A DNA stretch of 64,000 nucleotides. It comes from an uncultured Chloroflexia bacterium. Its GTDB lineage: Bacteria > Chloroflexota > Limnocylindria > Limnocylindrales > CSP1-4. The stretch is taken from positions 1-64,000 of the forward strand of contig CAVVYR010000031.1 in NCBI GenBank assembly GCA_963752475.1, written 5' to 3'. Below the pieces are notes generated by a model. That model was not told where the DNA came from. It worked only from the letters and a program-made list of their open reading frames with translations, and did not search any database. Position 1 is the first letter of the stretch; every line of letters starts with the position of its first letter. This document shows positions 1-20,472 of this stretch, in pieces. The translations under genes and the position numbers were made by a program.

Positions 1-394
1 CCGACCGTCTCGCTCGAACGTGGGGTCCAGCGGACCGAGGGTCTGCGATGGAAGTTCCTGGCCAACGCCTCCGACCCTCGCGTGGACGGCACGCTCTCGA
101 TGCTGGGTGAGACGCGATACCAGTTCCCCGGCTCCGTCACCATCACCTCCGGTCCGGTGGAACTGGTGAACGACGATGGCCGCTGGTCCGGGGAGTGGGG
201 GTGGTGGCGAACGCGAACGCACGATGGGCTGGAAGGTCCTCGGGTTCCTTGAGGGCGAGGGCGGATACGACGGACTCGCGTACCTCATCCACGTCGAGCA
301 GGACCTGTACGACACGAACGAGCTCGAGACCCATGGGGTCATCTACGTAGGCGATATCCCAGGCACGACGGACGAGGAGCCCCTCGCCGAGTAA
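1..394 (+). CDS. Secreted-protein family member (5'-truncated by window, frameshift near 200)
   Basis: Frame 1 gives SDPRVDGT...VNDDGRWSGEW; frame 2 continues GEGGYDGL...GVIYVGDIP...AE*. Same motifs as the paralogs at 2206, 3134 and 23536. Confidence 0.75.
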
Positions 395-400
395 CCCCAT

Positions 401-674
401 TGTGAGACTGGTGTCCTCCCCATCGCGGGGGCCCAGACTGGCGGCGACAGTGGACAGGCATGACCCGTAATCCCACTGGCTCTCGCAGCATGGCTTCGGG
501 ATGCCCTCGCGGGGATCTGTCTGCCCGTTCGCTGTCGACGCCGGCCTGGGACGCCGAGGCGTTGGCCTGATCAGAAGCCTGTCCACCCCGCAGGGGTGTG
601 ACCCATCACAGTCCTGCCAGCCCGGATGTCATGGCCCAGCCCGACGCCGACCACGGTCACCACACCGTCTCACA
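401..674 (+). ncRNA. Putative IS110 bridge RNA (target-binding and donor-binding loops)
   Basis: Closing stem 401-414/662-674. Two stem-loops with internal loops carry GTAATCCCA (467-475) plus CGCGG (508-512), matching the target, and AGAAGC (573-578) plus TCACA (606-610), matching the donor junction. Confidence 0.7.
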
Positions 675-685
675 GGAGGGCAACC

Positions 686-1736
686 ATGACCATGCTCGCA
701 GAGCGGATCGACGCCGTCATCGGGGTCGACACGCACAAGGCCTCGCACACCGCCGCGGTCGTGACACCGACCGGCGGTGCCACCGCTCACCTGACGGTGC
801 CCTCGGACGCCGTCGGCGCCAAGCGCGTCCTGGCCTTCGCTCGCCGTCACGCCCCTGCCCGACGGGTCTGGGCGATCGAGGGCACGGGCAGCTTCGGTGC
901 CGGGCTCACGACCTATCTGCTCGAGCAGGGCGAGTGGGTCGTCGAGATCGACCGCCCCAGGCGACCGGCCCGCCGCAACGGCGCCAAGAGCGACGAGCTC
1001 GACGCGATCCGCGCTGCCCGCGAGGCGCTCTCGCGCGAGCACCTCGCGCAGCCACGGCGTCGGGGCAGCCGCGAGGCGCTGCGCGTGCTGCTCGTGACAC
1101 GCGAGGGCTGCGGTGGTCGAGCGGACACGGGCGGTCTCCGCGCTCCAGGCGCTCGTCGTCAATGCGCCCGAGCAGCTCCGCGATCGGCTGCGCCACCTGG
1201 GTACCCGCGAGCTGGTCCTCCGGTGCGCGCGGCTGCGCAGCGGTCCCACACGGTCGCTCGAGCACCGCGCGACGATCGCGGCACTGCGCTCCACAGCGCG
1301 GCGGGCCCTCGTCTGCGAGGCCGAGGCGACCGACCTGGAGTCGGCGCTCGAGGACATCGTGAAGCAGGAGCGACCCGAGCTCCTCGCCGAGCCCGGCGTC
1401 GGGGTCATCACCGCAGCGCCCATCCTCAACGCCTGGTCCCATGCCGGACGCATCCGCTCCGAGGCGGCCTTCGCGATGCTCGCGGGCGTGGCGCCCATCC
1501 CCGCCTCATCGGGCCAGACCGTCCGTCACCGACTCAACCGTGCCGGCGACCGTCAGCTGAACCGGGCCCTCCACACCATCGTCCTCTCGCGGCTCCAGCA
1601 CGATGCCGAGACCCGCGCCTATGCCGCGCGTCGGCGGGCAGAGGGCCGGAGCGACCGAGAGATCAGGCGTTGCCTCAAGCGCTTCGTCGCACGGCGGCTC
1701 TTCCGGCTCCTGGAGGGCTCCGCCCAAGCGGCTTGA
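686..1736 (+). CDS. IS110 family transposase/recombinase (frameshift near 1110)
   Basis: IGVDTHK, AIEGTGSFG and KSDELDA (DEDD RuvC-like domain); C-terminal PIPASSG...HRLNRAGDRQLNRAL; RBS GGAGG at 675-679. Confidence 0.92.
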
Positions 1737-1738
1737 CA
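1733..1738 (+). promoter_or_regulatory. -35 hexamer at IS right end (circle-junction promoter)
   Basis: TTGACA lies 13 nt from the right end. On circularisation it would sit 16 nt before GAGACT (404-409). Confidence 0.55.
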
Positions 1739-2115
1739 GACATAGAAGCATCCGCGCCGCCTCGGCTGCCTGCGGCGCTGAAGAAAGTCGGAGGATGTTC
1801 GCGGCGACCAACCAGTCCCCGCGCTCAGCGCCGCAAGCCAGATCATCCACGCCGTCGTTGCCCCGACACCATCGACCACTGGTCGTCTGCGGTCGGGGAT
1901 CGCGTCGGGCGGTTCCTGCACGCTGACAACAGCGCCGCGAGCCAGATCCGGCACAGGGATAGACACCGACACGACGGTGCATGTCCTCCTGCGTGACCGT
2001 GAGCGGCACCCACCCGGACATCACGACGGTGCCGCGAAACAACGCCACTACCGCACGCGCATCCATCACCCTCGAAGGCCCAGTGGCCTTGTCGTCAGGC
2101 GGACAATGGTTGCCA

Positions 2116-2188
2116 GCGGGAGGCGATGAGGCACGGCCCACACCCTGGCCGCCTGGACCGCGCCGAGCCACTGGCGGACCCGGCCCGC
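2116..2188 (+). ncRNA. c-di-GMP-II-like riboswitch (variant), copy 1
   Basis: P1 GCGGG/CCCGC, kink-turn GGC-GAU-GA...GA-GCC, stem GGCACGG/CCGCGCC, pseudoknot CGCC/GGCG. Lies just upstream of the RBS; -10-like GACAAT at 2102-2107. Confidence 0.7.
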
Positions 2189-2205
2189 GCATGGGAGGGG
2201 TTGTC

Positions 2206-2754
2206 ATGCGTACGCTGCGACTGTCGCTGGTCGGGACGGTCATGTTGGCGCTGTTCGGCGGGCTCGGGGGCGTGGCAGCAGGGCAGGACCTCGAGGATGC
2301 GCCCGTATGGGTGAAGCTCCTCACCCGGGGAGATCTGCGGCTCGAGGGGATGGCCGTCATCGCCCAGCCAGGGTTGGGTTTCACGCAGTCGATCCGCGAC
2401 CTCCCGGGCGCCTGGGACAGCACCTACAGCGATCCCCGCCTGGACGGGACCCAGCACCTGATCCACAACGAGGACTGCTCCGCAGACGGCATCTGCGTCG
2501 CCTGGGGGGCCGTGGACATCGAGGGTCCCGAGGGCACGACGTGGACCCGCTGGTACCACGAGATCGACGATGACGACACCGACGGGGTGGACGACGCGAG
2601 CTGGCACTTCGTCCTCACCGGCACAGGACCCAACGAGGGGCTCACGGCCATCCTGTTCTCGCTGGGCGTGTGGGAGCAGTTCCCCAACGAATACGGGGTC
2701 ATCTACCGGGGCGACCCGCCGCCTGCCTCGGAGGAGCTGTTGACCGCCGAGTAA
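2206..2754 (+). CDS. Secreted protein, MRTLRL signal-peptide family
   Basis: RBS GGGAGGGG, signal peptide MRTLRLSLVGTVMLALFGGLGGVAAG/QD, SDPRLDGT and GTGPNEGL motifs. Confidence 0.85.
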   Translation: MRTLRLSLVGTVMLALFGGLGGVAAGQDLEDAPVWVKLLTRGDLRLEGMAVIAQPGLGFTQSIRDLPGAWDSTYSDPRLDGTQHLIHNEDCSADGICVAWGAVDIEGPEGTTWTRWYHEIDDDDTDGVDDASWHFVLTGTGPNEGLTAILFSLGVWEQFPNEYGVIYRGDPPPASEELLTAE

Positions 2755-2782
2755 CCCCATCCCGCCGCCTCGGCTGCCTGCG
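2749..2782 (+). repeat. Conserved 3' motif GAGTRACCCCATC...CGCCGCCTCGGCTGCC
   Basis: Also at 389-400 plus 1752-1774 (split by the IS), 3656-3685 and 19713-19747 (minus). Always includes the stop codon. Confidence 0.85.
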
Positions 2783-3041
2783 ATGGTCGCGGCCCTGCTT
2801 GGCACCTCGCCGGCCAGGGCCACGCCCATCGCCGCGAACCGGATCCACATACCCGTAGACACCGACACGCTGGACGCCTGCCCGCGTTGGGCCTGGGCGG
2901 ACACCATGACGGTGTGCTGGAACAGCGCCCTCGGACCTGAGGACAGCGGCCTCTGACCCTGAGAACAGCAGCCCGACTGCACGCGCATCTACCACCGTCG
3001 AACGCCCAGTGGCCTTGTCGCGAGGCGGACAATGGTTCGTA

Positions 3042-3113
3042 GCGGGAGGCCTGACGCGCGGCCCCAGCAGTGGCCGCCTGGACCGCGCCGAGCCACTGGC
3101 GAACCCGACCCGC
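3042..3113 (+). ncRNA. c-di-GMP-II-like riboswitch (variant), copy 2
   Basis: Homologous to 2116-2188, with stem GCGCGG/CCGCGC, a different loop, and 3' GGCGAACCCGACCCGC. Confidence 0.7.
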
Positions 3114-3133
3114 GCATGTTCAGGGGGAAAGTC

Positions 3134-3661
3134 ATGCGTACGTTGCGGCTGTCCCTGGCAGGGACGGTCATCCTGGCGCTGCTCGGTGGACTGGGTGGCG
3201 CGGCGCTGGCGCAGGACGAAGCGAGCGAGCCGACGACACCAGCGTTCTTCGAGCGGGTCGAAGAGACAGGGGACGACGACACTGGGGCATCGTGCACCAC
3301 GGACCCGCGCTTCAGCGGGACGATGGTGGAAGATGAGCCCGCCATCTTCAGCGAGACACCGGTCGCGCCCGAAGCACCTGGCATCCACGCGATCGGCCAC
3401 GGCTATGACCACGTCGGGTGGGGGCTGTCACGCCTCGAGAACGACGAGGGCGCCTGGCAGGGCTGGCACGGCGGCTTCTCGTGGATGAACGGGGCCCCGT
3501 GGCACGAGCAGATGTGGTTCGTCGGCGAGGGCGCGTACGACGGGTTGAGTGCCGTCGTCGCCAGTCGCTGCGAGCAACTCCCCTGCGGGGAGGGCGACAC
3601 GTTCCTCTACGGAGTCATCTACGAGGGCGACGTGCCACCGATCGGGCCGCCCGTCGAGTGA
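3134..3661 (+). CDS. Secreted protein, MRTLRL signal-peptide family
   Basis: MRTLRLSLAGTVILALLGGLGGAALA/QDE; TDPRFSGT, ENDEGAWQGW, GEGAYDGL and GVIYEGD motifs. Confidence 0.85.
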   Translation: MRTLRLSLAGTVILALLGGLGGAALAQDEASEPTTPAFFERVEETGDDDTGASCTTDPRFSGTMVEDEPAIFSETPVAPEAPGIHAIGHGYDHVGWGLSRLENDEGAWQGWHGGFSWMNGAPWHEQMWFVGEGAYDGLSAVVASRCEQLPCGEGDTFLYGVIYEGDVPPIGPPVE

Positions 3662-3684
3662 CCCCATCGCGCCGCCTCGGCTGC

Positions 3685-3726
3685 CAAGAAGAGGCCCGTC
3701 CCCGCTGAGGGGCGGGCCTCTTCTTG
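3685..3726. terminator. Intrinsic (bidirectional-type) terminator hairpin
   Basis: CAAGAAGAGGCCCGTCCC...GGGGCGGGCCTCTTCTTG long inverted repeat directly after the gene. Confidence 0.75.
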
Positions 3727-4033
3727 TGTCGGAGAACGTTCGCGGCGATGAACCAGCCCACGATGCGTCTACGAGCCGACCGGGCCCCACGCTCAGCCCC
3801 CACCATGCCGGGAGCCACAGATACAGGGATGGACCCCGACAGACCTCCATCCTGAGCATCGGGAGGCGGTCCTGAGCCCCGGCCTTGAGGCACGGCTGTG
3901 CCCTGAGAACGGCCACTCCGACACGCTGAACAGCGGCGCCACCGCACGCGCACCCGACCACTTGCCCCGACGGCTACCATTTAGAACAGACGGTCACTCC
4001 GCTGTGCGGAGGCCGAGATGCGCGGAGTAGACC

Positions 4034-19693: not shown

Positions 19694-19741
19694 GGCGGAC
19701 TCGCTCCGGCCTCGCAGGCAATCGAGCTGGCGCGGATGGGG

Positions 19742-20333
19742 TTACTCGAAGGCTCCAGCATGTCGGGCGTGATGGGCTGGCCGGCGACGATATCCATGGC
19801 CGCGACCCGGAACAGGACATCCCGACGGTCGGTGATGGCGTCGGTCGCCTCGTCAGCCGAGACGAACGCCCCGGTGAATTCGACGCGCTGCCCGGGCGCG
19901 GCGTCGAAGAGCGCGACCATCACCTTGACCGGGTCCTCCACGAGGTAAAAGGTGTGCTCCGCGTAGAAGTTGTAGCGCTCCGGGCGCATGTCCTCGCCCC
20001 ACACCTCGAACGAGAGCCGCTCACCGTCATAGTCCCAGTAGTAGGTCGCCGGAACCTTCGGCTCGCTCGGCCAGTCGAAGGTCATCTCGTATAGAGGTCC
20101 CCGTTGACCGCATACGTGCACGGCTGGGGGCTCCAGTTCTCGCCCCAGTGTTGGACACAGGTCCCGTCCGCGTTGAACTCGACCGCTTGGCCGGGGTACT
20201 CGTAGGCGACGAGCATCCCGGTCGGGAAGGTCATCGCTTCGGACTCTTCGTCCTGTGCCGCGGCCACCCCACCGAGTCCACCCCACAACGAGACGGTCAC
20301 CATGCAGGCCACCAGAAGTCGCAACGTACGCAT
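19742..20333 (-). CDS. Secreted protein with MRTLRL signal peptide and SAF-like C-terminal segment (frameshifted)
   Basis: MRTLRLLVACMVTVSLWGGLGGVAAA/QDE; C-terminal VAAMDIVAGQPITPDML; ends in the family 3' motif. Confidence 0.7.
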
Positions 20334-20354
20334 GAGGATCCCCCTTCGATACGG

Positions 20355-20428
20355 GCGGGCCGGGTTCGCCAATTGCTCGGCGCGGTCCTCAGCGGCGAAG
20401 GTTCGGGCCGTGTGTCATCGCCTCCCGC
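20355..20428 (-). ncRNA. c-di-GMP-II-like riboswitch (variant), copy 3, more degenerate
   Basis: Reverse complement reads GCGGGAGGCGATGACACACGG...CGCC...GGACCGCGCCGAGCAATTGGCGAACCCGGCCCGC; -10-like GAGAAT upstream. Confidence 0.6.
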
Positions 20429-20472
20429 TACGCCTATTCTCTCGCGGGCGTCCATCGGCCTCGACGCACGAC

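Follow-up and report, generated by a model that had tools for sequence, protein, structure and literature searches.

An IS110-family insertion sequence with a probable bridge RNA beside a multicopy gene family in an uncultured Chloroflexota bacterium

The DNA described here is a stretch of 64,000 nucleotides (nt) from an uncultured Chloroflexia bacterium (Chloroflexota; Limnocylindria; Limnocylindrales; CSP1-4), positions 1 to 64,000 of contig CAVVYR010000031.1 in GenBank assembly GCA_963752475.1, and this whole stretch is called the window hereafter. At 401-1752 on the plus strand it carries an insertion sequence of the IS110 family, which is 1352 bp long and has the ends TGTGAG...GCATC. This element is very probably a bridge-recombinase insertion sequence of the IS110 group within that family, and a recently disabled member of a diverged sublineage. 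Evidence for this reading comes from the left end of the element, which is conserved as a covarying structure among its relatives and in which unpaired segments change together with the DNA outside the element and with the element's own ends. The left end is non-coding and long (285 nt, 401-685) and the right end is short (16 nt past the stop codon); there are no terminal inverted repeats between TGTGAG and GCATC, and the target bases are not duplicated.

Recombinase and probable bridge RNA

A Pfam search of the coding part gave PF01548 (DEDD_Tnp_IS110) at window 686-1111 with an expectation value (E) of 2.3e-14 and PF02371 (Transposase_20) at 1113-1733 with E 1.5e-18, the two halves being in different frames. 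An intact relative also matches PF01548 (E 1e-16). Furthermore, the intact protein of 349 amino acids (aa) encoded by the relative L004 aligns to IS621 (8wt6_A, E 1.7e-6) and to ISCro4 (E 5.8e-5). Its GVD, IEGTG and SDELDA, the DEDD motifs, and its serine motif SSG are in register with IS621, SSG standing opposite the ESG that holds the conserved serine. An earlier note on this DNA had called it an IS110 element, and both the domains and the alignment of the intact relative uphold that identification. In IS1111 elements, the guide RNA is located in the right end. In the present element it is located in the left end, so this is an IS110-group and not an IS1111 element.

The relatives on which the comparison is based are as follows. 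A second copy in the assembly (C14:933-2279, minus strand) is 92% identical and has six coding indels, and no intact copy of the element was found in this assembly. Matches at E 1e-20 or better occur in 16 of 100 related genomes; L004 is 92% identical in DNA and has an intact open reading frame (ORF), L006 is 87% identical, and L005 and L020, both loci in one genome, are 80% identical. In addition, 43 further loci came from a scan that took a single genome for each species; with one exception they are in Actinomycetota, and apart from that same outlier their protein identities are 44-64%. Of these loci 32 were usable and 11 (L051, L055, L056, L059-L062, L067-L070) were left out, either as incomplete or as having no donor-loop anchor under the pattern used. 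L035 and L064 were dropped, since the left end is missing in them, and six rows lack 9 nt of left flank.

The N-terminal part of the recombinase, with the DEDD RuvC-like domain of PF01548, lies at 686..1104 (+), and the C-terminal part, with the Tnp domain and its SSG serine (PF02371, IS621 alignment), lies at 1108..1736 (+) in the +1 frame. The G run between them (1105..1107, +) has one G more than the C14 copy, L004 and L111, which shifts the frame; this extra G is the sole coding indel with respect to these three relatives. The ORF is uninterrupted in L004 and L111. The break is a defect of the window copy and leaves the family assignment intact.

When 35 distinct left ends were aligned, RNAalifold gave a layout of an outer stem, then an internal loop that a short GGC:GCC stem closes, then a middle hairpin and lastly a second internal loop around a 10-bp stem. 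This two-loop layout is the layout published for IS621 in the available text of the two original reports (PMC11208160, PMC11208158). Its five helices comprise 38 pairs, counted after the removal of five pairs that reflect mere complementarity of guide and left end; 93.0% of the cells are paired, compared with 32-40% after a shift of the 3' partners by 1-3 columns, and compensatory change on both sides is seen in 23 of the 38 pairs. None of 500 shuffles reached any of the five structure measures. In the window copy the consensus structure and the match of guide and flank place the target-binding stem-loop (loop 1) at 444..539 (+), with an outer stem of 444-464 and 519-539 and an inner hairpin at 478-505. 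The middle hairpin between the loops (helix 4, 96.2% of cells paired) is at 542..569 (+), and the donor-binding stem-loop (loop 2) is at 570..611 (+), with an inner hairpin at 581-602.

The unpaired sides of these loops hold the guides. The 5' side of loop 1 (465-477, +) contains the left target guide, the 9-mer TAATCCCAC at 468-476, and its 3' side (506-518, +) contains the right target guide followed by a tail complementary to the element's final ATC. The 5' side of loop 2 (570-580, +) has AGAAGC, identical with the right-end bases 1744-1749, and its 3' side (603-611, +) has UCACA, the complement of 401-405. For a test across the family, the 9 nt ending the 5' side of loop 1 were compared with the 9 nt to the left of each element, and 6 nt of the reverse-complemented 3' side, taken past the constant tail, with the 6 nt to the right; in the left-guide test, two adjustments were made by hand, the istB-type guide being set to its first copy and the register of L049 being moved by one base. 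The left guide matches its flank at a mean of 7.86 of 9 positions in 28 unique pairs (shuffled 4.16, maximum 5.32) and the right guide at 3.46 of 6 in 26 pairs (shuffled 1.96, maximum 2.81), with none of 20000 shuffles reaching the observed value in either case, as read with the reservation that kinship of the elements inflates such tests. For the six variable positions of the left guide alone the values are 5.07 and 2.10. A phylogenetic explanation is nevertheless ruled out by the literal identity of an internal loop with a flank outside the element.

The donor loop behaves likewise. Its hexamer tracks the right end across relatives (AGAAGC, AGGAGC, AGAAGG, AGAAGA), and the left end TGTAA of L066 is compensated by UUACA in loop 2, the others having TGTGA and UCACA. 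Moreover, the element ends in ATC or GTC, and the tail of the right target guide is complementary to these three bases and covaries with the purine. Such complementarity between guide tail and partner corresponds to the post-exchange, "handshake" pairing described for IS621 (PMC11208160, PMC11208158, PMC13626964, in their available text). It might be argued that these internal copies of flanks and ends are protein-binding or recombination sites at the DNA level, or chance, and not RNA guides, since short GC-rich matches are easy to find and a transcript was not observed here. However, it is the unpaired sides of the two internal loops that hold the matching segments, and the helices of these loops covary as RNA; the left segments are in top-strand sense and the right ones are its complement, as reported for IS621 (PMC11208160, PMC11208158); and the loop-1 segments vary with the insertion site while the rest is constant. 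That alternative is hardly credible in view of these points.

The earlier note had already described two stem-loops in the left end, the first with guides for the target and the second with guides for the element's ends, and both statements are borne out by the covarying structure and by the shuffle tests. Its strings are found where it had put them: GAGTAACCCCAT at 389-400, GTAATCCCA at 467-475, CGCGG at 508-512, AGAAGC at 573-578, TCACA at 606-610, TTGACA at 1733-1738, CAT at 1749-1751 and CCGCG at 1752-1756. The proposed match of the right guide, CGCGG against CCGCG, is two bases out of the register of the family, in which the window copy matches at 4 of 6. The case shows that raw sequence can suffice for the correct reading of a bridge RNA.

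Ten nucleotides in the 5' hairpin of the left end (CCCCATCGCG, 418-427) equal the 10 nt spanning the crossover of the common empty target. As a target-linked feature this copy was rejected, the counterpart segment in relatives being constant whatever the target, and for that reason the segment is treated as unexplained or chance.

Boundaries and core bases

The boundaries are fixed by relatives that have inserted into istB genes. In L020 the last codons of the upstream istB piece are ...ACC CAT and the first of the downstream piece are CTC GCG; the pieces match the Pfam profile IstB_IS21 at positions 10-107 and 108-235, other cuts being impossible at L020, and intact istB paralogues read ...ACCCATCTG... 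(...CAT CTG...). Because the pieces join in frame and the paralogues lack it, the inserted DNA is exactly TGTGAG...GCATC and none of it is duplicated. L005 and L006 agree with these boundaries. In two sequencing runs (X4 and X7), one contig each joins 400 to 1753, the sides being 24 and 21 nt long; most likely both contigs come from other copies of the target motif, so they support the form of the motif and not this locus.

The earlier note had placed the element at 401-1751, between two copies of CAT. According to such a reading, donor and target have a CAT (or AT) core in common, which comes to stand on either side of the element, and the site at 19729 shows the true target, GTAACCCCAT-CCGCGCC. 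CAT is indeed present at 398-400 and at 1749-1751, and an IS621-type shared core has an almost invariant T as its second base, as given in the available text of the IS621 papers; but in the three istB insertions, made by relatives of 80-87% identity with the same ends, restoring the frame takes the removal of exactly TGTGAG...GCATC, and L020 permits no other cut, the Pfam profile running 107|108 over the joint. An unoccupied GTAACCCCAT-CCGCGCC site is present in the same window, against which it must be set that CAT|CGCGCC is read in 8 of the 17 distinct motif copies and the extra C, CAT-C-CGCGCC, in the copy at 19729 only. In intact relatives, the reverse-complemented right guide region reads ATCCGCGC, with eight contiguous matches to the occupied right junction; the same ATCCGCGC is also the element's ATC followed by the target's CGCGC, as post-exchange pairing would require. 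In addition, the terminal C is invariant in all right ends read (these were picked by a pattern requiring a terminal TC) and thus behaves as part of the element. The shorter extent is quite improbable. The istB insertions, the common motif and the invariant terminal C correct it to 401-1752, the shared CAT being a coincidence of a target in ...CAT with an element end in ...CATC, where no core is duplicated. Judged from these junctions, the element is 401-1752, with TAACCCC-AT|CGCGC as its predicted target and AGAAGCA-TC|TGTGA as its predicted donor in IS621 numbering.

At the window locus itself, an orthologue was matched in one of 48 other genomes of the genus; it is 78% identical and has a diverged motif, TAG-CCCAC-GATGCC. 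One contig of a further run (X1) joins 420 to 1749, with four letters fitting either side. It represents a copy with only the first 24 nt of the left end followed by the right flank, and it reads CCCCATC-CGCGCC. Loss of an element between short CAT(C) repeats would create the form with the extra C, so the site at 19729 might be a scar and not a virgin target.

The guides end and begin exactly at the crossover, as they do in IS621. The pair before the crossover is A-Y (AT or AC) in every target and T-C in every donor, and in every junction read the left one keeps the target pair (30 junctions from 36 rows) and the right one the donor pair (27 junctions, with right ends picked by the pattern that requires the terminal TC). 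Of the two target guides, the left one reads the target pair, AC in most rows and AU in three, and the right one reads the donor TC with its tail. An identical CT core at both junctions was not found, the left having AT or AC and the right TC with no duplication; as the core dinucleotides differ, the element is not filed in the IS621-like CT-core subgroup. It is tentatively suggested, as a possibility that falls short of being probable, that donor and target of this clade share no core dinucleotide, that its enzyme is a natural bridge recombinase needing no core identity, and that the junctions record an outcome decided by the top strand. Mainly top-strand transfer has been proposed, in the available parts of two preprints, for CazIS110-1 (10.1101/2025.10.25.684509) and for cell-free IS621 (10.64898/2026.08.31.748434). 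Such transfer would leave the target core at the left junction and the donor core at the right one, as in all the junctions read; these studies are experiments on elements with identical cores, whereas natural junction sequences only are given here. If the suggestion is true, the junctions bear on the dispute between double-strand and top-strand-only models, and a lineage that recombines sites with differing core bases would be of value for engineering. As no literature search was aimed at non-identical cores, they are not claimed here to be unpublished.

Proposed mechanism and state of the window copy

The right end (1733..1752, +) contains a -35-like TTGACA (1733-1738), the left-donor arm AGAAGC (1744-1749) and the terminal ATC (1750-1752). 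The left end (401..409, +) begins with TGTGA (401-405), the right-donor arm, which complements UCACA at 606-610 (alignment columns 1-5 with 277-281). Positions G2, T3, A5 and T9 are invariant in the 35 left ends. The -35 that the earlier note had pointed out is conserved in the right end and, in a circle, would face a hexamer NANNNT whose A and T are invariant in 35 of 35 left ends; GAGACT (404-409) is the candidate -10, 17 nt past the -35. The predicted circle junction is AGAAGCATC-TGTGAG, with one C more than the AGAAGCAT-TGTGAG given earlier.

From this arrangement, and by analogy with IS621, we infer the following course. The element would leave as a circle, in which the joining of the right and left ends sets TTGACA 17 nt upstream of GAGACT, and the promoter so formed would drive an RNA of about 200 nt from the left end, which would fold into the two internal loops. 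In loop 1 of the intact relatives, UAACCCCAU would bind the bottom strand of TAACCCCAT by base pairing, and GCGCG likewise the top strand of CGCGC. Each 3' guide tail would complement the incoming partner, that is, ATC of the donor and AC of the target, and the DEDD/Ser recombinase would exchange strands right after ...CAT of the target and ...ATC of the donor.

The nearest described systems, of a kind made known in 2024, are IS621 of E. coli, IS622 and ISCro4 (Durrant et al. 2024, PMC11208160; Hiraizumi et al. 2024, PMC11208158; PMC13626964), with which, as far as their available text describes them, the present element shares the same two protein domains and catalytic motifs. The likeness to IS621 extends to the long left end, the short right end with a -35 and the RNA with target and donor loops, whose 5' sides are in top-strand sense over 9 nt ending at the crossover, whose 3' sides complement the next 5-6 nt, and whose 3' tails complement the core and position 7 of the incoming partner. 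Unlike IS621, the present family shows only distant sequence kinship (E 1.7e-6) and an RNA that matches neither Rfam nor another model. Before the crossover it has AT or AC as the target pair and TC as the donor pair, compared with CT in both; its left donor guide pairs at 6+1 and not 9 positions, and both of its 5' guides end in YUG. It belongs to an actinobacterial clade and here uses a motif after a stop codon, in place of a repetitive extragenic palindromic (REP) element.

Several points weigh against the identification as a disabled bridge-recombinase insertion sequence with the extent given above. An Rfam search of window 1-4000 at E up to 1 gave no match inside the element. The window copy matches its own site at 7 of 9 positions with the left guide (8 with one U:G) and at 4 of 6 with the right, values that fit close to the family averages, and its left donor guide has 6 bases plus 1, not 9, in common with the right end. 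The IS621 papers describe, in their available text, an invariant CT core shared by donor and target (PMC11208160, PMC11208158, PMC13626964); since the core pairs differ here, the chemistry may not be identical. A site with the exact sequence that boundaries of 401-1751 need exists at 19729. No circle junction was found among the joints listed from four DNA runs, whose contigs drop rare forms. Finally, the single extra G could be an assembly error, and then the copy would be intact.

The frame was lost either recently or only in the assembly. Compared with L004, the two ORF halves have 63 codon differences that are synonymous only and 21 that change the amino acid: in 686..1104, 116 of 139 codons are identical, 19 synonymous and 4 changing, and in 1108..1736, 146 of 207 are identical, 44 synonymous and 17 changing. 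The left end differs from that of L004 at 11 positions: loop 1 has six of them (465, 471, 476, 508, 512, 518), the donor hairpin has four in its apical loop, and the last is downstream. At the six loop-1 positions, contigs of each of the four DNA runs have the L004-type bases, and by inspection the window states at 465, 476 and 518 are shared with the istB-targeting relatives. From the codon pattern and these shared states, the copy belongs to a sublineage whose target loop is slightly different and which has evolved under constraint. As to sequencing runs, none contained half or more of the window's words (best 0.22; six RNA runs 0.05-0.09), and the four DNA runs were compared as contigs, which represent relatives; one contig in each of the four runs is without the extra G, again from relatives.

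If the extra G were an assembly error, the copy would be intact and active, and its recombinase could insert at, or recombine between, about 17 motif copies and so reshuffle the gene family that they follow. Only one indel separates the ORF from those of intact relatives, most codon differences are synonymous (63 against 21) and the stems of the left end are unchanged. However, the flanking genes also have frame breaks, which are not single-base homopolymer changes (window 1-394 compared with C14), the C14 copy has six indels in its coding region, and the best word share of any sequencing run was 0.22. A precedent is offered by ISPpu10, an IS110 element found at the edges of amplifications of more than 100 kb and inserted in a multicopy intergenic sequence, according to the available text (10.64898/2026.03.19.712850); here, no rearrangement was seen and none was looked for. 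An active copy is unlikely. For the genome as assembled, the earlier suggestion that the same recombinase could rearrange the gene units is speculation, as the window copy is frameshifted, the C14 copy is worse and there is no intact copy in the assembly.

The window and C14 copies have their flanking genes in common, the flanks being 95.7% and 97.6% identical and the elements 92.1%, and the C14 element is nearer to L111 (96.3%) than to the window element (91.4%). Since the flanks are more alike than the elements and the C14 element is nearer to L111, the two copies may be separate insertions at the same site. Alternatively, both may descend from one old insertion.

Target sites and the host gene family

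The left target half in the window (389..400, +) is GAG-TAA-CCCCAT, GAGTAACCCCAT, with the crossover after 400; the TAA at 392-394 is the stop codon of the ORF 176-394, and the same 12 nt stand to the left of related elements elsewhere. The right half (1753..1778, +) is CGCGCC followed by an imperfect hairpin, GCGCCGC(11 nt)GCGGCGC, whose z-score of -1.4 is not significant alone. The target is a conserved sequence that directly follows the stop codon in a multicopy family of putative small secreted-protein genes. It forms the 3' end of a repeat unit made of a leader, a gene for about 175-185 aa that lacks a Pfam match and starts in the manner of a signal peptide, and TAA/TGA-CCCCAT-CGCGCCGCCTCGGCTGCC. 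The leaders match the orphan riboswitch variants c-di-GMP-II-GCG/GAG (RF03170, RF03169), with 35 matches in the 4.2-Mb assembly, 33 of them over the RF03170 cut-off. The motif is found within 1.5 kb downstream of 18 of the 35 leaders, which gives 17 distinct copies and bears out the earlier proposal of a multicopy target after stop codons. For the host, the element marks a repeat unit of orphan riboswitch-like leader, small secreted-protein gene and 3' motif that is present about 35 times.

The 22-mer of the joined flanks has one further match in the window, at 19726-19747 (-) with two mismatches (0.00 expected from 100 shuffles), and near copies at 2749-2770 and 3656-3677. These correspond to three empty motifs: one after the next gene, in the variant CAT|CCCGCC (2749..2775, +), one reading GAGTGACCCCAT|CGCGCC (3656..3680, +) and the one with the extra C (19726..19747, -). 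The last contains the exact empty target of 17 nt that the earlier note had given at 19731-19747; the 17-mer is exact there, and the site is the only one of the 17 copies with the extra C.

Reuse of the site is seen among copies with the same guide. The GUAACCCCAU guide occurs in the window and C14 copies, in L004 of another genome and in the metagenome contigs L109, L110, L111 and L112. All six readable left flanks (window, C14, L004, L109, L110, L111) end in (C/T)CGAGTAACCCCAT, after different genes, so that copies with this guide stand at GAGTAACCCCAT| in five distinct places, or six if C14 is counted. Insertion of same-guide copies at unrelated sequences, which had been named as what would refute the guide, was not found among these six flanks. 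Four of the five readable right flanks are CGCGCCG(C/T)CTCGG; that of L112, of which 8 nt are visible, differs from the other four.

Relatives with other guides are found at other sites. L005, L020 and L006 (80-87% identical) have the same ends and donor loop and a different loop 1, and they sit in the Walker-A codons of IS21 istB (GKS/TH|L/I). More distant relatives lie inside an ISL3-type-transposase-like gene (GDKYV|TVIIDL), inside a gene of which the piece upstream has a match to the rve_3 integrase-core domain (HYNY|HRPH), or directly after TGA stop codons. The rve_3 match covers positions 4-54 and ends one residue short of the joint, and Pfam gave no match on the short downstream pieces of the transposase-like target genes. 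For both of these targets (L053, L054), a diverged paralogue is occupied at the same position (L117, L120), and no clean empty site was found among the paralogues. A well-populated natural series is thereby available, in which the donor loop is fixed and the target loop is re-aimed at five kinds of site within one clade, namely the post-stop repeat of the gene family, the Walker-A region of IS21 istB, the ISL3-type-like gene, the rve_3-matching gene and other post-stop sites. The IS1111-group elements with seekRNA, and IS4321 and IS5075, which target the ends of Tn21-type transposons, are RNA-guided IS110-family elements aimed at other mobile elements. The relatives described here resemble them in being aimed at mobile elements (IS21 istB, the rve_3 gene and the ISL3-type-like transposase gene). 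Another parallel is with ISPpu10 and ISPpu9 of Pseudomonas putida, IS110-family elements that, in the available text, insert into a conserved intergenic sequence which is present in many copies and has a stem-loop next to it, as here (10.64898/2026.03.19.712850; PMC12288879). Unlike theirs, the stem-loop here is 3' of the crossover and weak, and no amplification or rearrangement was seen here, where none was looked for.

The commonest target of the wider family gave 12 exact left-half matches in three genomes; five are occupied, three are followed by GC(A/G)C as the 401-1752 boundaries predict, three by TC and unrelated sequence, and one is different. In L081, L086 and L065, from the genomes of L030 and L033 and one other, this target (GCGGCGGAAKGAC|GC..) stands directly after TTGACAGTCA(YR).., which resembles an IS110-type right end, and three further wider-family sites read GGAATGAC-TC- and then unrelated sequence.

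In the istB-targeting L005, L020 and L006, the apical stem of the target loop is longer by an insertion of about 45-50 nt, which repeats the left-guide segment (CAUGACCC...CAUUGG) and folds as a CAUGAC/GUCAUG hairpin. A dual-guide reading of these relatives was rejected: of the two copies of the segment, only the first lies in the loop in the minimum-energy fold, the second being part of an enlarged apical hairpin, and the two are not told apart by their site matches. In L119, a paralogue of the ISL3-like gene hit by L053, the sequence is ...TACGTC-T-GTGATCATC..., 2 nt shorter than the in-frame sequence. It corresponds to an occupied site that has undergone a deletion between two GTGA copies, one in the element's left end and the other in the right flank, and may be the footprint of an imprecise loss.

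Riboswitch-like leaders matched by Rfam in the window lie at 2110-2194 (+), 3036-3119 (+) and 20350-20434 (-), and each precedes a small secreted-protein gene. In the assembly the leaders are clustered, and C8:571-593 kb alone has at least a dozen. Compared with its C14 counterpart, the ORF that lies upstream of the element shows a change of frame near 176-252, and the gene ending at 19745 (19745-20333, -) has, by eye, an apparent in-frame stop near 20090; these broken genes of the family around the element reflect either a decaying region or poor assembly. A distant third IS110-family gene is found at C1:212135-212557 (-), 40% identical over the C-terminal domain and with an open frame of 382 aa.

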